Part shown: piece after piece, positions 30,350 to 36,243 of the stretch | Position numbering within the stretch: position 1 is the first letter of the stretch | How the letters are laid out: the number at the start of each line of letters is the position of its first letter | Notes under the pieces: generated by a model | The model's input: the letters and a program-made list of their open reading frames with translations, nothing else | What the model was told of the DNA's origin: nothing | Databases searched by the model: none | Made by a program: the position numbers and the translations under genes | Source of the DNA: Parcubacteria bacterium C7867-004 | GTDB taxonomy: Bacteria > Patescibacteriota > Minisyncoccia > Phycocordibacterales > Phycocordibacteraceae | Reading direction: 5' to 3' | Assembly: GCA_001189075.1 (NCBI GenBank) | Contig: LFCN01000006.1 | Span: 460,866 to 524,865 of the forward strand | Length of the DNA: 64,000 bases

Positions 30350-31999
30350 ATGGGATACAACATTCTGCCGAATCTCGAGTACTGCAAAGAGATCGTGGAC
30401 GGATACGCTTCCTTCCTCTATTACACCCATATTCCGCCGACTATCATGGCGCTGCTTCTCGGCATATATGTGCTCGTGAAGAATCGGAAGTCGACGAGCG
30501 CCCAGCTATTGTTCGCGCTCAGCATCGTGTTTGCGCTCTGGACCACCACTGATCTCCTCATATGGCTAACGTTCGACCAGGCAACACCGATGATGTTCCT
30601 CTGGTCGCTTATCGGGATCCTCTCAAGCCTGATGTTCGCCCTGACATTCTTCTTTACGTTCTCGTTCGTCACGGGTCGAAGGATCCCCGTCTGGCTCGTC
30701 GCAGCATGGGGCGTGCTGCTGCTTCCGGTCATCATCGGCGCGCCAACGTCACTCAATCTCCAAGGATTCGACATACGCGACTGTGTCGCTGTCGAGGCGG
30801 CGGGATTCCTCTACTACTATCACGGCCTCGGACTCCTTACTGCCGTCCTCATACCGTTCCTCCCGCTCTTGCGACGCAAGCAAGAGGAAGCAAAAAGCAT
30901 TCCTCGAGCGGCAGTCACCTTCGCGACGCTCGGCGCGGAGCTGTTCCTGCTCACGTTCCTTGGCACCAGTTTCCTTGCCAGCTACCTGGTAGAGACGGGG
31001 GTCGTTCCTGACTTCGGTCTGGAGCAGTACGGCATCCTCGCGATGGCCGTCTTTATGGCGTTCCTCGCGTACCTTATCGTGCAGTACAATGCCTTCAACC
31101 TGAAATTCCTCGGTGCGCAGGCCCTCGTTATCGCCCTCGTTATCCTCGTCGCGTCGCAATACCTATTCGAGCAATCAGCGACCAACTACTGGCTGGTAAC
31201 GCTCACGCTGGTACTTACCATCTTCTTCGGGTTTATCCTCGTTCGAAGCGTTCAGCGCGAGATCAAGCAGCGTGAGCATATCGAAAAGCTCGCCAAGAAC
31301 CTCGAAAGCGCGAATAACCAGCAGGTCATCCTTATCCACTTCATTACTCACCAAATAAAAGGATTCGTCGCGAAATCGCGTAACATCTTCGCAACCGCGC
31401 TTGAGGGAGACTTCGGCACGATACCGGATACGCTCCGTCCGCTCTTCGAAGAGGGTCTGGCTTCCGACACCAGGGGAGTGGCAACCATCCAGGAGATCCT
31501 AAACGCCGCGAATATCAAGAACGGAAAGGTGACCTATGCGAAGGAACAGATAGACCTGAAGACGCTGGTCGACGAGGTCGCTAACGACCAACGGAGGACC
31601 GCCGAGAAGAAAGGACTGAAGCTCGTCATCGAGACTGGAAGCGAGCCTGTCATGTTACTCGGCGACCGTACACAGCTCGTGAACGCTATCAAGAACCTCA
31701 TCGATAACTCCGTCAAATACACCCCTTCGGGAGAGGTGCACATCGAGCTTGTGCAAACGCGAGATAAAATCCGCTTCTCGGTCAAAGATACCGGCATCGG
31801 CATCACCCCGGAGGATATGTCGCACCTTTTCACCGAAGGAGGGCATGGCGCCGAGTCCATGAAGATAAACGTTGAGAGTACCGGTTTCGGCCTCTATATC
31901 GTGAAGAACATTATCGAGGCCCATGGCGGAAAGGTATGGGCGGAGTCGGAAGGAGTGGGTAAGGGAAGCCGCTTCGTTGTCGAGCTCCCTGCATCCTAA
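30350..31999 (+). CDS. sensor histidine kinase with multi-pass membrane N-terminal domain (orphan; no response regulator adjacent)
   Basis: About 8 predicted TM helices, then a HisKA-like H-box (FITHQIKGFVAKSRN) and HATPase_c N/G1/G2 boxes (NLIDNSVKYT, VKDTGIGI, GFGLYIV). Confidence 0.8.
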   Translation: MGYNILPNLEYCKEIVDGYASFLYYTHIPPTIMALLLGIYVLVKNRKSTSAQLLFALSIVFALWTTTDLLIWLTFDQATPMMFLWSLIGILSSLMFALTFFFTFSFVTGRRIPVWLVAAWGVLLLPVIIGAPTSLNLQGFDIRDCVAVEAAGFLYYYHGLGLLTAVLIPFLPLLRRKQEEAKSIPRAAVTFATLGAELFLLTFLGTSFLASYLVETGVVPDFGLEQYGILAMAVFMAFLAYLIVQYNAFNLKFLGAQALVIALVILVASQYLFEQSATNYWLVTLTLVLTIFFGFILVRSVQREIKQREHIEKLAKNLESANNQQVILIHFITHQIKGFVAKSRNIFATALEGDFGTIPDTLRPLFEEGLASDTRGVATIQEILNAANIKNGKVTYAKEQIDLKTLVDEVANDQRRTAEKKGLKLVIETGSEPVMLLGDRTQLVNAIKNLIDNSVKYTPSGEVHIELVQTRDKIRFSVKDTGIGITPEDMSHLFTEGGHGAESMKINVESTGFGLYIVKNIIEAHGGKVWAESEGVGKGSRFVVELPAS

Positions 32000-32008
32000 A
32001 CGACTGCC

Positions 32009-32017
32009 TGGTATACT
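32009..32017 (+). promoter_or_regulatory. extended -10 TGgTATACT 7 nt upstream of tyrS ATG (leaderless-type)
   Basis: Read directly. Confidence 0.45.
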
Positions 32018-32023
32018 CGCTTC

Positions 32024-33274
32024 ATGAACCTGGCAGACGACCTAAAAGCGCGCGGATTGGTGGAGCACACTTCCGCTGATCTCGAGAAGATCCTCTCTAC
32101 GCGCCGCACGGCGTATCTTGGCGTCGACCCTTCTGCAGACTCAATGCAGGCAGGGAATCTCGTCGTAGTGCTGATGATGAAGCGACTCGCTGACGCGGGC
32201 CACAAGATCGTATTGCTTGTGGGAGGCGGCACCGGCATGATCGGAGACCCACGGGATTCGGGAGAACGCTCGCTCGCTGACGTGAAGCTCGTCGAGAAGA
32301 ATAAGAAAGCGCTGAAGGTGCAGATGCAGCGCATACTCGGGACTAAGATAACCGTCGTGGACAATGCCGACTGGCTCCTAAAGGTGAAGCTCGTCGATTT
32401 CCTTCGCGATATTGGCAAGCACTTCACCGTCAACGAGCTTATTAAGCGCGATATCATCAAGCGCCGGCTCGAGAATCCAGACGACAGCATCTCGTACACC
32501 GAATTCGCGTACTCGCTCCTCCAGGGATACGACTACTACATCCTGAACAAGGAGAAAGGCGTGGATCTGCAGATCGGCGGCACTGATCAGTGGACCAACC
32601 TCCTCTCTGGCGTCGAACTCATTCGCCGCAAGCTCGGAAAAGAAGCCTTTACCTTTACCATTCCGCTTGTAACGGACGCTGCCGGAAAGAAATTCGGGAA
32701 GTCAGAAGGGAATGCGGTGTGGCTCGATGCCACTAAAACCTCCCCATACGCCTTCTACCAGTTCTGGCTCAATCAGCCCGACGAGATGGTGGAGAAGTAC
32801 CTAAAGTTCTACACCTTTATTCCCGTCGAGCGCATCGAAGAGATGATGGCTTCGCACAAGCAGAACCCAGGCGCTCGCGAAGCACAGGAGACCCTCGCCC
32901 GCACCGTGACGGAGATTGTCCACGGCCCAGCAGCGGCAGCTACCGCCTCGGCGGCAGCATCAGCGTTATTCGGAAAGGAGCCGCTCTCAAGTCTTCCAAA
33001 GGAAGCGCGCGCGGTTGTGCTCGCAGAAGCGCCCTCGCTTCAGATTACGAAGGCGGATCTTGCGGCAGGATATTCAGTTATAGACGCGCTAGTGAATTCC
33101 TCGATGACGCCTTCGAAAGGAGAGGCACGCAGACTGGTCGAAGGGAAAGGAGTTTCGCTGAATGGCCAGGGTATCGATTCAGTCGATCGAAAGATTGGAA
33201 AGGAAGACTTCACTGATGGTCTCGCGCTACTCAAGAAAGGGAAGCGGGACATCATTGTTCTTGTTCTTAAGTAA
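32024..33274 (+). CDS. tyrS: tyrosyl-tRNA synthetase
   Basis: Class I aaRS fold with KFGKS (KMSKS-type) motif and C-terminal S4-like domain; full-length TyrRS similarity. Confidence 0.93.
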   Translation: MNLADDLKARGLVEHTSADLEKILSTRRTAYLGVDPSADSMQAGNLVVVLMMKRLADAGHKIVLLVGGGTGMIGDPRDSGERSLADVKLVEKNKKALKVQMQRILGTKITVVDNADWLLKVKLVDFLRDIGKHFTVNELIKRDIIKRRLENPDDSISYTEFAYSLLQGYDYYILNKEKGVDLQIGGTDQWTNLLSGVELIRRKLGKEAFTFTIPLVTDAAGKKFGKSEGNAVWLDATKTSPYAFYQFWLNQPDEMVEKYLKFYTFIPVERIEEMMASHKQNPGAREAQETLARTVTEIVHGPAAAATASAAASALFGKEPLSSLPKEARAVVLAEAPSLQITKADLAAGYSVIDALVNSSMTPSKGEARRLVEGKGVSLNGQGIDSVDRKIGKEDFTDGLALLKKGKRDIIVLVLK

Positions 33275-33298
33275 TACTTGAAATAAAATCCATCTTTT

Positions 33299-33331
33299 CA
33301 TTAAGCTAAGAATGACATTCTGAGCTTAATG
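33299..33331. other. ~33-bp near-perfect palindrome (CATTAAGCT aa GAATGaCATTC tg AGCTTAATG) overlapping the start codon of the downstream ORF
   Basis: Outer 9-bp arms are perfect reverse complements and the inner 5-bp arms are perfect; the ATG at 33329 lies in the right arm. Confidence 0.6.
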
Positions 33332-33973
33332 ACGTTCCAAACTCTGGACCAACAGAAAGAGGCTGCGAGATTGTATGGTAACGGTTTAAGCGCACAGCAA
33401 GTTGCTGATACTCTGGGTATCCATATACATACGGTATTCCGCGCACTGCGAAAACTTGGCGTAAAGAGTCGCACGACACGTGAATCAAACAGGATTAGAT
33501 TTACCGCGCAGCCCCTTTCATACAAGGTAAAAGAAGATCTTTCCTATGAGGAAGAACGTCTTAAGATGACGGCAGTAATGCTCTATTGGGCTGAAGGATA
33601 CAAGGTTGGGAAAGGAACAGTGGACTTCGCAAACTCAGATCCTGACATGGTCCTTATTTTTAAGAGATTTCTTTCGGAAATATGTCAGGTGGATGAAAGT
33701 AGGATACGAGGACATCTGTACTGCTACGAAGGACAGGATATATCCGGGATACGAACATTTTGGAGCAGACTTCTTTCGATTCCAGAAGATCAGTTCGTTA
33801 AGCCCTATATAAAACAGCAGGCTACACCGGGCATTCGTGGTCCACGAATGGTTCACGGGCTTGTACATGTCCGATACTGTGATACAAAGTTATTGAAGCA
33901 GATACTATGTTGGATAGACGAGTATCGCATCGAATGCGTCGGTGGCGGAGTGGTCAATCGCGACTGGCTGTAA
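33329..33973 (+). CDS. HTH-domain plus LAGLIDADG-like homing-endonuclease-like protein, in an AT-rich insertion
   Basis: N-terminal HTH (LYGNGLSAQQVADTLGIHIHTVFRALRKLGV). Central MLYWAEGYKVGKGTVDFANSDPDMVLIFKRFL resembles the single LAGLIDADG motif and following helix of homodimeric homing endonucleases. Local GC is clearly below window average. The last ~12 codons and the stop codon lie inside tRNA-Tyr. Confidence 0.45.
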   Translation: MTFQTLDQQKEAARLYGNGLSAQQVADTLGIHIHTVFRALRKLGVKSRTTRESNRIRFTAQPLSYKVKEDLSYEEERLKMTAVMLYWAEGYKVGKGTVDFANSDPDMVLIFKRFLSEICQVDESRIRGHLYCYEGQDISGIRTFWSRLLSIPEDQFVKPYIKQQATPGIRGPRMVHGLVHVRYCDTKLLKQILCWIDEYRIECVGGGVVNRDWL

Positions 33974-34021
33974 CCCAGTTGACTTAGGTCTACGTAGGTT
34001 CGAATCCTACCCGGCGCACCA
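33936..34021 (+). tRNA. tRNA-Tyr (anticodon GUA), class II with long variable arm, CCA encoded
   Basis: Folded by hand: acceptor GCGTCGG/CCGGCGC (one G-U), D-arm GCGG/TCGC with GG in the loop, anticodon stem ACTGG/CCAGT, loop CTGTAAC (anticodon GTA), 14-nt variable arm, T-arm GTAGG-TTCGAAT-CCTAC, discriminator A, CCA. Coordinates anchored to flanking ORF-track positions. Confidence 0.8.
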
Positions 34022-36243
34022 TGAACAAGCAGTTCCTCGCAGCAGTTACGCTCGCTGCACTTCTCCTAACCGGAGTAGTGCCTGCGTTTGCTGAGGAGCC
34101 CCTAGTTGAAGAAGTACCGGCTCCATTTGAGACGGTACTTTCTGATGCTGCGGAACCGGAAGCCACGACAACGGAAAGCAGTGTTGAACCTGCAGCATCT
34201 GCAGAAGAGACTTCTGTGGCGACAACGACCGAGGTTGAAGAATCAACACCGGCGGTATCGAGTGATACTCCCACCGTTATCGTGAAATTTAAGGAGAGCG
34301 AGCTTGATCTTGAGACAGCGGCGGACCGAGAGATCGCGGAAGACATCGCGGACATCGAGAGCGTTATCGTTACTGAGCATCTCCCGGATGCGAATATCTC
34401 GGTCGTAGCTTCCGAGATCAATGAGAGCGCGGAAGAAGCGGCTGAGCGACTTGAGGACAATCCTTTGATTGAGTACGCCGAACCCAACTACGAGCGTACG
34501 CTTGATGCTATCAACAGCGATGATGCGCATCGCGCGCTTCTCTGGGCCCTTGAAAACACCGGCCAGAACGTGAACGGAGTCATGGGCACTGCGGACGCTG
34601 ATATCGACGGAAGCGAAGCGTGGGGCCTGTCGCAAGGAACTTCTACTGTTGTAGCCGTGATCGATCTTGGCGTGATGTACAACCACGGCGATCTCGCTAA
34701 CCGCATGTGGGACGGATCCGCGTGCGTATCAGAGACCGGAGCTATGCTTGGTTCCTGCAACCACGGCTACGATTTCGAGAACAACGACGCGACACCGCTT
34801 CCGGAGATCCCGCTCGTCTCTCAAGGTACGCACGGCACGCATGTCGCAGGCATCATCGGTGCGGAGATGAATAACGCTACAGGCACGATAGGTGTCGCGC
34901 CGAATACCCGCATCATGGCGCTCAAGTTCGGGCTCGATGTGGCGAGCGAAGTGAAAGCTATCGACTTCGCGACGCAGAACGGCGCCGATATCATCAACGC
35001 GAGCTATGGCGGCACCACCTTCTCACAAGCGGAGTACGACGCCATCGAACGATTCCAGAACGCCGGCGGCATCTTCGTAGCATCAGCAGGTAATGGCGGC
35101 GTCGACGTCATCGGGGACGATAATGCAGCGACCCCGACCTATCCGGCAGGGTACGACCTTCCGAGTATCATCTCAGTTGCCGCAAGCGATCAAAACGATG
35201 CACTCACGAGCTTCTCGAATTACGGCAGCACTACTGTCGACCTTGCGGCACCCGGTCGTAATATCCTCAGCACCGTGACTACAACGGGAGTGAATATGGC
35301 GTATGGCTATCTGAGCGGAACCTCGATGGCAGCACCGATGGTTGCAGGAGCGCTCGCGCTAGCTAAGTCACTGTATCCAGCAGCAACGCCAACCGCGCTT
35401 AAGAACGCGATTCAAGCAAGCGGGGACACCAACGATGCGCTTGAGGGAACCATGGTAAGCGATAAACGATTGAATGCCCGTCATTTCCTTGAAGTACTCG
35501 CAGCGGGCGACGTGACGGCACCAGTCATTACGCTTACCGGAAGCGCAACCGTTTCTCTTACCGTAGGAGATACCTATACCGAAGAAGGAGCAACCGCAGT
35601 CGATGAGACCGACGGAAGTCTTACGGTTACGGTAGGCGGGGATTCAGTGAACACTGCATCCGACGGTACGTATGTTGTTACATACAACGTCATGGACGCT
35701 GCAGGGAATGCAGCGACGCAGCTTACGCGTACAGTTACGGTTACCAGTCCGGTTGTTTCTTCCGGTGGCGGAGGAGGCGGGGGTGGAGGAGGAGGCGGAG
35801 GAAGCCGAACCGCAAAGAAAAGAAGCACGACGACCGCCACGACCGTTGCGAACCCGACCCGAGAACTCCACTCTTCAGCGACTCAGACTGCAGTAGTCAC
35901 GCCTACCTACTCATTCACGAGCGACCTGACAGTCGGCTCGACCGGGCAGGCAGTAACCGATTTACAAAATCTTCTTACGCGAACCGGTTTCTATGCTGGT
36001 CCCGTAACCGGCTACTTCGGTCCGCTCACGGCGACAGCGCTCCGTGCGTACCAGCAAGCAAAAGGTGCAGCAGTTACCGGTTCGGTAGACAGTGCAACCC
36101 GTACACTCCTCAATCAGGAGGCACCTGCATCCGCGAACGTCTCATCACCAAGCCCAGACGTGCAGGCGACACTCGCTACGCTCCTTGCGCTCGTAGCCCA
36201 GCTTCAGGCTCGCCTGCAGGCGCTCAAGGCTTCGGGGTTATAA
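34021..36243 (+). CDS. secreted subtilisin-like serine protease (S8) with poly-Gly linker and C-terminal peptidoglycan-binding domain
   Basis: Signal peptide; Asp/His/Ser triad motifs (VAVIDLGV, HGTHVAGIIGA, GTSMAAPMVAGALAL); run of 14 Gly; C-terminal PG_binding_1-like repeat (GSTGQAVTDLQNLLTRTGFYAGPVTGYFGPLTATALRAYQQAKG). Confidence 0.85.
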   Translation: MNKQFLAAVTLAALLLTGVVPAFAEEPLVEEVPAPFETVLSDAAEPEATTTESSVEPAASAEETSVATTTEVEESTPAVSSDTPTVIVKFKESELDLETAADREIAEDIADIESVIVTEHLPDANISVVASEINESAEEAAERLEDNPLIEYAEPNYERTLDAINSDDAHRALLWALENTGQNVNGVMGTADADIDGSEAWGLSQGTSTVVAVIDLGVMYNHGDLANRMWDGSACVSETGAMLGSCNHGYDFENNDATPLPEIPLVSQGTHGTHVAGIIGAEMNNATGTIGVAPNTRIMALKFGLDVASEVKAIDFATQNGADIINASYGGTTFSQAEYDAIERFQNAGGIFVASAGNGGVDVIGDDNAATPTYPAGYDLPSIISVAASDQNDALTSFSNYGSTTVDLAAPGRNILSTVTTTGVNMAYGYLSGTSMAAPMVAGALALAKSLYPAATPTALKNAIQASGDTNDALEGTMVSDKRLNARHFLEVLAAGDVTAPVITLTGSATVSLTVGDTYTEEGATAVDETDGSLTVTVGGDSVNTASDGTYVVTYNVMDAAGNAATQLTRTVTVTSPVVSSGGGGGGGGGGGGGSRTAKKRSTTTATTVANPTRELHSSATQTAVVTPTYSFTSDLTVGSTGQAVTDLQNLLTRTGFYAGPVTGYFGPLTATALRAYQQAKGAAVTGSVDSATRTLLNQEAPASANVSSPSPDVQATLATLLALVAQLQARLQALKASGL
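35764..35805 (+). repeat. GGN-codon low-complexity tract encoding a Gly14 linker inside the S8 protease gene
   Basis: ggtggcggaggaggcgggggtggaggaggaggcggaggaagc. Confidence 0.7.

Follow-up and report, generated by a model that had tools for sequence, protein, structure and literature searches.

The window analysed here is a 64-kb stretch of the genome of Parcubacteria bacterium C7867-004, to whose positions all coordinates refer. It contains an open reading frame (ORF; 33329..33973, +) that starts with ATG, encodes 214 amino acids and occupies the gap between the tyrosyl-tRNA synthetase gene tyrS (32024..33274, +) and tRNA-Tyr(GUA) (33936..34021, +). We propose that this free-standing, homing-endonuclease-like gene at the 5′ flank of a tRNA encodes a helix-turn-helix (HTH) protein with a divergent LAGLIDADG-type domain, and that it probably is, or recently was, an active homing endonuclease. 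A first-pass annotation had placed the ORF at these positions, and the ORF call, ARAGORN and Rfam all agreed with that layout. The left flank of the element is formed by tyrS (Pfam tRNA-synt_1b, 249 bits, and SYY_C-terminal) and the right flank by a secreted S8 peptidase gene (34021..36243, +; Pfam Peptidase_S8, 176 bits). ARAGORN found a single tRNA in the whole window, tRNA-Tyr(GTA) at 33936..34021. This class II tRNA, with a long variable arm and an encoded CCA, matched the Rfam tRNA model (RF00005) over its full length and without interruption (60.1 bits, E = 1.3e-11), and both tools showed it to be intact and intron-less. Intron models scanned over 31000–36000 gave no match, which rules out a group I intron in the tRNA-Tyr of the window; the ORF is located 5′ of an uninterrupted tRNA and not inside an intron or intein.

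As had been noticed from the DNA, the ORF reads 38 nt into tRNA-Tyr (33936..33973, +; tRNA positions 1–37), and its TAA stop codon (33971–33973) is formed by U35 and A36 of the anticodon together with A37. The last 12 codons within the tRNA read VGGGVVNRDWL plus the stop and are preceded by a split Cys codon. At the other end, the A of the ATG of the S8 peptidase gene is the final A of the encoded CCA (position 34021); with the read-in of the upstream ORF, tRNA-Tyr is thus overlapped by protein-coding ORFs on both sides. In 200-nt windows the GC content was 0.41–0.455 across 33200–33900, compared with 0.52–0.60 on both sides. The ORF itself had a GC content of 0.445 and a GC3 of 0.42 (tyrS, 0.66; S8 gene, 0.57). 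The segment is AT-rich, as described earlier, but the background of ~60% GC assumed for it was too high, since the whole window has 0.561, i.e., about 56%.

A database entry 100% identical to the ORF protein (Parcubacteria bacterium C7867-004) is annotated only as a putative DNA-binding protein. The N-terminal HTH seen in the first reading was confirmed by Pfam HTH_23 (PF13384), which matched residues 10–41 (33356..33451, +) with 26.8 bits against a curated cut-off of 24.6 and also matched 39 of 84 relatives; HTH_7, HTH_38 and TnsD gave weak additional matches. The single-motif LAGLIDADG core proposed for the rest of the protein failed at the level of curated profiles. Pfam returned no LAGLIDADG, HNH or other nuclease match, Pfam and NCBIfam yielded no LAGLIDADG match at E ≤ 1, and the scans with Pfam, NCBIfam, PHROGs and PADLOC matched the HTH part only. 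HMMER searches of PDB sequences with the single sequence and with a profile retrieved only HTH proteins, and Foldseek against PDB gave nothing significant (top matches OmpA/YfiB-like, TM below 0.41). LAGLIDADG_3 matched weakly in 5 of 84 family members (best E 0.043).

By contrast, the core was recovered at the level of fold and distant homology. An AlphaFold (AF2) model built from 27 homologues (mean pLDDT 84) showed a four-helix HTH domain (residues 6–60) and a separate alpha/beta domain (residues 73–204; 33545..33940, +) with the LAGLIDADG alpha/beta core fold. The tRNA-encoded tail (residues 207–214) was disordered in the model, with pLDDT below 50, and is missing from the 208-aa relatives. 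In comparison with known structures, the model scored 7.1 against the intein endonuclease domain 7qsu (92 residues, 3.0 Å), 6.5 against WhiA (8dy9_I), 6.1 against I-DmoI, 6.0 against E-DreI, 5.8 against I-Tsp061I and 5.6 against both PI-PfuI and I-CeuI. Profiles of 84 members of the window's family (A3) and of 40 members of a canonical two-motif HTH–LAGLIDADG family (A4) were aligned by hhalign with a probability of 94.7% (E 5.9e-8) over 109 columns spanning the HTH and the first LAGLIDADG domain. This alignment put Glu89–Gly90 of the LAGLIDADG-equivalent motif LYWAEGYK (residues 85–92; 33581..33604, +) onto the Asp–Gly of GDG in the LAGLIDADG_3 family, with Glu89 (33593–33595) at the catalytic-acid position. 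The segment MLYWAEGYK also aligned with GLYVAEGDK, the second motif of I-DmoI (E117–G), whose sequence was checked against PDB 2vs8; when the I-DmoI sequence alone was compared by hhalign, the correct motif was paired, but weakly (probability 8%, E 0.004). Glu89, Gly90, Asn102, Ser103 and Asp104 were invariant in 84/84 sequences, paralogues at 27% identity included. The LAGLIDADG assignment is thus supported by the predicted structure and by profile–profile comparison, and the ORF protein is, by these comparisons, a divergent single-motif member of the superfamily with LAGLIDADG_3-type enzymes as its nearest relatives. Since a single motif implies a homodimer, the protein would be a DNA-binding protein acting in dimeric form.

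The overlap with a functional tRNA, originally considered unusual, is real but not a peculiarity of this locus, because read-in is the rule for the family, which is large and specific to Patescibacteria. A word-based search revealed 307 homologues, all of about 208–217 aa and all from Patescibacteria-type metagenome-assembled genomes (MAGs), and an exhaustive profile search of 1.84 billion representatives clustered at 50% identity gave 1,810 proteins at E ≤ 1e-10. A scan restricted to one genome per species hit 126 species, from which 80 loci were fetched; HMM searches of six-frame ORFs combined with ARAGORN identified 87 copies in the window and the fetched loci. For 79 of these copies, the end of the conserved domain lies ≤40 nt from the 5′ end of a tRNA on the same strand (most −5 to +24, maximum +30). 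The other eight lie at contig ends (four), before intron-split tRNAs that ARAGORN missed (two) or at a distance of 75–88 nt (two). The partner is tRNA-Tyr(GUA) in 72 copies. Four copies before tRNA-Trp form one deep clade (L034 6274–7056, L049 5451–6125, L075 5483–6019 and L052 5693–6376), and those of L075 and L052 are truncated N-terminally. Second copies before tRNA-Thr(GGT) constitute another clade (L047 5131–5850, L064 3850–4530), while two further copies before tRNA-Thr(GGT), L021 1644–2555 and L055 3725–4612, nest inside the Tyr clade.

No stop codon precedes the tRNA in 62 of the 79 copies. The ORF stops in the anticodon loop in 26 of them, with an overlap of 37–39 nt and UAA (anticodon plus A37) as in the window, or UGA in the intron-split L040; it stops earlier in the tRNA in 29 (5–32 nt overlap) and only after traversing most of the tRNA in seven. 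The remaining 17 copies have their own stop codon 0–17 nt before the tRNA. Accordingly, tRNA-derived tails of the same or compensated sequence, e.g., ...CVGGGVVNRDWL or ...CVGTQAVNEGRL, end 52 of the 120 nearest homologues. Upstream, tyrS precedes the ORF throughout the window's clade (all of L001–L018), while elsewhere the neighbour is tRNA-Thr(UGU), with the ORF filling the Thr–Tyr spacer of the usual Thr–Tyr–Gly–Thr cluster (L029, L044, L047), or ClpB in other lineages. Because the upstream neighbour varies, the constant feature is the 5′ junction of the tRNA and not synteny. The first-pass annotation was thus right about the position of tyrS but not about its significance: the adjacency of tyrS and tRNA-Tyr is incidental, occurring also at sites devoid of the ORF and being lost in other lineages, which rules out a functional link of the ORF to tyrS. 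Family members currently carry the labels ‘hypothetical’, ‘DNA-binding protein’, ‘YlxM’ and ‘WhiA’. Several loci were found in MAGs labelled Planctomycetia (L019, L024, L030, L064), Deltaproteobacteria (L029 and L044, the latter a 474-kb contig), Pseudomonadales (L041, L073), Omnitrophota (L047, L050) and Patiriisocius (L025). These out-of-phylum placements, with a Patescibacteria-type gene and tRNA cluster, are probably mis-binned contigs.

Group I introns (Rfam RF00028, 61–100 bits) split tRNA-Tyr directly after the ORF in six loci (L019 2817–3049, L035 4600–4824, L042 4613–4829, L047 4592–4819, L050 4488–4782 and L064 3115–3354), and ARAGORN -i alone indicated a seventh intron-split tRNA-Tyr in L040. 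None of the seven introns contains an ORF. Standard ARAGORN overlooks intron-split tRNAs, and ARAGORN -i labels the tRNA of L042 as tRNA-Ser; in L040, the TGA stop of the ORF consists of U35 and the first two intron bases. The pairing raises the question of whether the ORF product serves an intron, either by acting as a maturase or, as an endonuclease, by cleaving intron-less tRNA-Tyr in trans at the insertion site in the anticodon loop (‘collaborative homing’). LAGLIDADG maturases and free-standing endonucleases directed at intron sites both exist. However, the tRNA-Tyr of the window and about 67 other tRNAs adjoining the ORF are intron-less, so that a nuclease aimed at the intron site would cut its own genome. 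In addition, the tRNAs of one locus with and one without the ORF (L087 and L086) are identical. Moreover, the intron-bearing loci are essentially one ORF clade, and the link may therefore simply reflect host ancestry. We regard a role as intron helper as very unlikely, even though endonuclease-less group I introns are common in tRNAs of Patescibacteria (PMC13011429, bioRxiv 10.1101/2025.07.03.662931). That study of group I introns within Patescibacteria tRNAs, most of which lack endonuclease genes, is the nearest published work, and the flanking ORFs go unmentioned there.

Comparison of orthologous tyrS–tRNA-Tyr loci revealed that the insert is present in some close relatives and absent from others. 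For this comparison, we took metagenome contigs encoding close relatives of the window's TyrS without regard to the ORF, which gave 13 loci with 60–77% TyrS identity and a readable downstream region. The site was empty in six (L081, L082, L084, L085, L086, L088), with tRNA-Tyr following 30–45 nt after tyrS; it held the window's family in four (L083, L087, L091, L129) and a canonical two-motif HTH–LAGLIDADG gene in three (intact in L089, frameshifted in L092 and L093). All six empty spacers contain a good sigma-70-type promoter (TTGAAA, 16–17 nt, TATACT or TATAGT), whose −10 box ends 10–11 nt short of the tRNA's first base and whose −35 box mostly overlaps the tyrS stop codon. This common architecture indicates that the empty state is shared and functional and not a random deletion scar, and occupancy therefore looks more like the result of an insertion, or of recombinational replacement from an occupied allele, than like an ancestral condition with random deletions. 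On the TyrS tree, empty loci are interspersed with occupied lineages. In one pair, L086 (empty) and L087 (occupied), TyrS is 97.5% identical (91% at the DNA level) and the tRNA 100% identical. Similarity is lost about 24 nt before the tyrS stop and regained one base before the tRNA, so that about 45 nt in L086 are replaced by about 707 nt in L087. The related genomes thus show a presence/absence polymorphism at one precise site, and from these alignments the ORF segment is best read as behaving like an insertion.

The same alignments bear on the idea that the ORF is a regulator left over from a larger integrative element or prophage with its attachment site in the tRNA. Transfer RNA genes are classic integration sites, and the HTH is recombinase-like, as its weak HTH_7, HTH_38 and TnsD matches indicate. 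The indel between L086 and L087, however, comprises the ORF and its leader only, and it lies at the 5′ end of the tRNA and not at the 3′ end. There is no integrase nearby and neither a duplicated tRNA segment nor a flanking direct repeat; furthermore, the flanks are ordinary housekeeping genes, and a scan of viral contigs gave no relatives. With integrase and repeats both missing, an integrative element was ruled out, and we hold even a remnant of one to be extremely improbable.

The canonical family found at the same site has two LAGLIDADG motifs in addition to an N-terminal HTH, matches Pfam LAGLIDADG_3 with 58 bits and comprises at least 375 proteins. Copies were located in L089 (3663–4469), L161 (2501–3307), L162 (2501–3283) and L164 (2501–3295), and a frameshifted copy in L092 (4279–4572 + 4569–5111; = L093). 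The sequences of L092 and L093 are identical, and the frameshift was seen in two independent metagenomes. The intact gene of L089 overlaps the tRNA by 37 nt; tRNA-like C-terminal tails are present in at least 97 of 120 canonical members, and three contexts that we checked directly showed 10–37 nt of overlap with tRNA-Tyr behind tyrS or ClpB. Source labels for this family include ‘WhiA’ and ‘intein/homing endonuclease’. Two distinct LAGLIDADG lineages together with empty alleles at one precise site are the classic signature of a homing site. Further upstream, a sensor histidine kinase gene (30350–31999) precedes tyrS in the window, and the same gene is found upstream of tyrS in L001, L008, L011, L015, L016, L018, L161 and L162. 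The order histidine kinase–tyrS–[site]–tRNA-Tyr is kept whichever element fills the site, and the site is empty in none of those eight relatives.

At its 5′ end, the ORF has its ATG (33329–33331) in the right arm of a near-perfect palindrome, as first described; we measured 35 bp (33298..33332, strandless), with 17-nt arms (33298–33314 and 33316–33332) that flank one central base and are complementary at 16 of 17 positions. No further copy of the half-site exists in the window, where chance would yield about 0.03 such matches, and none of 100 shuffles gave two. As RNA, the palindrome would form a hairpin of −19.4 kcal/mol that pairs the AUG (z = −3.9; 0 of 200 shuffles folded as well). A direct repeat, AATGACATTC / AATGACGTTC (33311–33320 and 33328–33337), duplicates the start-codon context inside the palindrome and creates an out-of-frame mini-ORF, ATG ACA TTC TGA, at 33312. 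A conserved family sequence was ruled out for the 35-bp palindrome, which is specific to the window; relatives carry other inverted repeats. In L005, L007, L010, L012 and L013, the inverted repeat TCTCAAC...GTTGAGA is situated between the −35 and −10 boxes of the ORF promoter and appears operator-like at the DNA level. In the window, L001, L016/L083, L017, L049 and L054, the start codon lies within the 3′ arm of a hairpin whose sequence differs from locus to locus. Across 81 starts, the mean folding z was −0.82 compared with −0.26 for ORF interiors, and values below −2 were reached in 13 versus 6 of 81; this modest excess of RNA hairpins over start codons in the family is suggestive, not decisive. 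The earlier interpretation of the palindrome as an operator or a start-sequestering hairpin hence gains partial comparative support from the inverted repeats of relatives. Most simply, the palindrome would be a device that keeps the protein scarce, be it through autorepression by the dimer, through masking of the AUG in read-through transcripts, or both.

The best candidate for an ORF promoter in the window is a weak one (TTGAAA at 33281–33286, 18 nt, TAAGCT; 33281..33310, +). The sequence TTGAAATAA (33281–33289), which includes its −35 box, repeats the tyrS terminus and the −35 box of the empty sites. In its extended form, TAC TTGAAATAA (33278–33289), it follows three bases past the tyrS stop, in frame, and repeats the tyrS terminus TTG AAA TAA; it may be a relic of the junction before insertion. 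In the 79 occupied loci, promoter-like sites were concentrated in two places, with a sharp peak immediately ahead of the ORF start (−640 to −620 relative to the tRNA, 45 hits) and a second one in the final 40 nt of the reading frame (22 hits), indicating that most copies bring their own promoter and that a minority also carry an embedded tRNA promoter. The embedded site, TTGATA/TTGTCA-N17-TAGAAT, is found within the codons of the C-terminal helix (last ~45 nt), with its −10 box ending about 19 nt before the tRNA, in L033, L034, L051, L053, L059, L070, L071 and others, and is a possible internal tRNA promoter. The window has TAGACG as the equivalent −10, and neither its ORF promoter nor its embedded tRNA promoter passed the thresholds of the promoter scan. 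A terminator scan over 33100–34200, from the 3′ end of tyrS to the start of the S8 gene, found nothing. The spacer of some relatives also harbours a conserved non-coding motif, ACATTTCTGTGTATAAGT, about 10–30 nt after the tyrS stop and ahead of the −35 box of the ORF promoter (L002, L004–L007, L010, L012, L013), with the variant AATAGTTCTGTG in L087/L091.

The invasion by a selfish element suggested in the first-pass annotation stands in so far as relatives with an empty site make the ORF insertion-like; it does not stand as a recent event, since the same gene occurs at the same junction down to 35% identity (27% for the tRNA-Trp and tRNA-Thr paralogues). Nor can the AT-richness, taken as a sign of arrival, be used to date an invasion. 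In 78 of 79 loci the ORF has a lower GC content than its flanks (mean difference −7.7 points), and its GC follows host GC (r = 0.71, slope 0.81); the deficit is a family trait that tracks the host, which rules it out as proof of recent transfer. The window ORF is thus a long-resident member of its family and not a fresh invader. The gene is under strong purifying selection: where dS was unsaturated, dN/dS amounted to 0.02–0.12; synonymous sites were saturated in most pairs, with non-synonymous differences of 0.14–0.2. Family size and dN/dS together rule out a chance ORF.

Several observations weigh against an endonuclease maintained by homing. Within the tyrS-linked clade, the ORF and TyrS change at about the same slow pace (mean pairwise identity 61% versus 64%), and the TyrS tree shows the main ORF groupings again. 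There was no pair in which the ORF was much more similar than TyrS, the largest excess being +10 points, and therefore no recent horizontal transfer was demonstrated. Much of the data can be accommodated by vertical descent with repeated loss, and strong purifying selection is equally expected of a host-useful, domesticated protein. Moreover, a scan of viral contigs for relatives found none and thus pointed to no vector; L086 and L087 differ also in DNA outside tyrS–tRNA and are hence not isogenic; the predicted topology has one helix more than the classic alpha-beta-beta-alpha-beta-beta-alpha core; and a sigma-70 consensus scan over 33100–34200 found no site, leaving the window without a convincing promoter. 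ORF and TyrS identities were correlated with r = 0.45, and some conflict was seen, e.g., between the window and L016, where TyrS is 77% but the ORF 57% identical. Taken together, these facts are compatible with two options: a homing endonuclease whose function is maintained because homing recurs among related cells, and a protein that has taken on a role for the host.

The second of these options can be pictured as a domesticated LAGLIDADG-fold ‘mini-WhiA’, i.e., an HTH on an inactive scaffold that, as a transcription factor, would control the adjacent tRNA and its own gene via promoter palindromes. Besides the low dN/dS, the TyrS-like rate and the recurring tree groupings, such a regulator would account for inverted repeats between the −35 and −10 boxes of ORF promoters, for a tRNA association kept down to the lowest identities given above, and for the fact that each paralogue clade has its own tRNA partner. 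The gene is dispensable, however: 6 of the 13 tyrS-anchored relatives, one with 97.5% TyrS identity, lack it and carry a separate promoter for the tRNA. At the catalytic position, the acidic residue never varies among the sequences compared, whereas WhiA lost that acid, and the architecture, with an N-terminal HTH and one domain, is the reverse of that of WhiA, whose Pfam models did not match the window protein. Also speaking against domestication are the persistent GC deficit and the occupation of the same site by a second, canonical LAGLIDADG_3 lineage, some copies of which are frameshifted. We therefore consider a regulator of this kind possible but unlikely, and favour the homing endonuclease as the probable explanation.

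For the favoured homing endonuclease, the cleavage, its target, the homing itself, the co-transcription with the tRNA and the effect of RNase P on the stop codon are all steps that we infer. The starting point would be a gene-free relative, in which a 30–45-nt spacer with the tRNA promoter (TTGAAA, 16–17 nt, TATACT) separates tyrS from tRNA-Tyr. The enzyme would recognise and cut the junction of spacer and tRNA 5′ end in such an empty chromosome, and repair off the occupied copy would insert the gene, with tyrS (or tRNA-Thr in other lineages) and the tRNA serving as homology arms. This insertion would destroy the target and at the same time displace the tRNA promoter. With the promoter removed and no terminator among tyrS, ORF and tRNA, tRNA-Tyr is probably matured by RNase P, mainly from the 3′ end of the ORF transcript or from tyrS read-through. 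Since the stop codon lies inside the tRNA, the same cleavage would strip the ORF message of its stop, and together with the palindrome as operator or hairpin this would keep the protein scarce. It is plausible that the removal of the stop by RNase P acts as a second brake on expression; primarily, however, we regard the read-in as a by-product of a gene end that is pinned to the first base of the tRNA. A more far-reaching synthesis would view these genes as a hitherto unrecognised class of chromosomal homing endonucleases that target tRNA promoter/5′ junctions and capture the transcription of the tRNA, so that they could not be silenced without loss of an essential single-copy tRNA. In this synthesis they would be throttled by RNase P and trans-translation, and the intron-bearing sub-lineage would be a living intermediate in the birth of mobile introns by collaborative homing. 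As a package, we judge this quite unlikely.

A full-text literature search gave no description of the family, nor of LAGLIDADG genes fused to the 5′ ends of bacterial tRNAs. Homing endonucleases themselves are already known, and what is new is a free-standing LAGLIDADG-type family whose place in the genome is fixed to the 5′ flank of a tRNA. The tiny genomes of the Candidate Phyla Radiation (Patescibacteria) keep thousands of copies of it at this one very specific address. If these are active nucleases, they represent a large untapped set of LAGLIDADG enzymes, single- and two-motif, directed at highly conserved tRNA promoter/5′ junctions, with implications for enzyme engineering and for the persistence of selfish genes in reduced genomes. 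For bacteria, such coupling between a protein-coding gene and tRNA production is unusual: the ORF lacks a stop codon ahead of the tRNA, the immutable U–A of the anticodon plus A37 serve as the stop, and the promoter is displaced. That endonuclease-less group I introns can occupy the very tRNA that adjoins the ORF is relevant to the origins of mobile introns. There is also a lesson for annotation, because the family goes under the labels given above and ORF ends are routinely called through tRNA genes.

Among known systems, LAGLIDADG_3 (PF14528) enzymes such as I-DmoI and intein domains share with the window protein the motif helix that ends in an acidic residue plus Gly. They differ from it in having two motifs; the window protein has one, its C-terminal half cannot be aligned to a second LAGLIDADG domain, its predicted core contains an additional helix, Pfam does not detect it as LAGLIDADG, and its gene is free-standing instead of intron- or intein-encoded. 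The canonical HTH–LAGLIDADG_3 family (L089, L161, L162, L164) has the same N-terminal HTH, insertion site and tRNA read-in as the window's family. T4-like phages possess free-standing homing endonuclease genes, e.g., that of SegB (GIY-YIG) in the tRNA region of T4, which engage in ‘intronless homing’. Both are stand-alone endonuclease-type genes next to tRNA genes, and the window gene, too, would spread by cutting the gene-free allele, with co-conversion of the flanks; in contrast to SegB, it is LAGLIDADG-type, resides in a cellular chromosome, is fused to the 5′ end of the tRNA and yielded no phage relatives. WhiA (DUF199), a conserved housekeeping gene product, is a domesticated LAGLIDADG transcription factor with two degenerate domains, a C-terminal HTH and lost catalytic acids, whereas the window protein has its HTH first, one domain and an invariant Glu89 and is dispensable among close relatives. 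In collaborative homing, the free-standing F-CphI of a cyanophage lies beside an ORF-less group I intron in psbA. Seven related loci similarly pair the gene with an endonuclease-less group I intron in tRNA-Tyr, unlike most family loci, including the window, which are without an intron. I-TevI is an autorepressor that acts at an operator in its own promoter, and the window's family likewise has palindromes in or beside its own promoter or start, although their sequences differ between relatives. Finally, in the ‘tRNA punctuation’ of mitochondria, coding regions abut tRNAs without complete stop codons. The ORF likewise ends at or inside a tRNA, so that tRNA processing would set the 3′ end of the message; here, however, the setting is a bacterial chromosome, and processing would remove the stop inside the tRNA instead of completing it.

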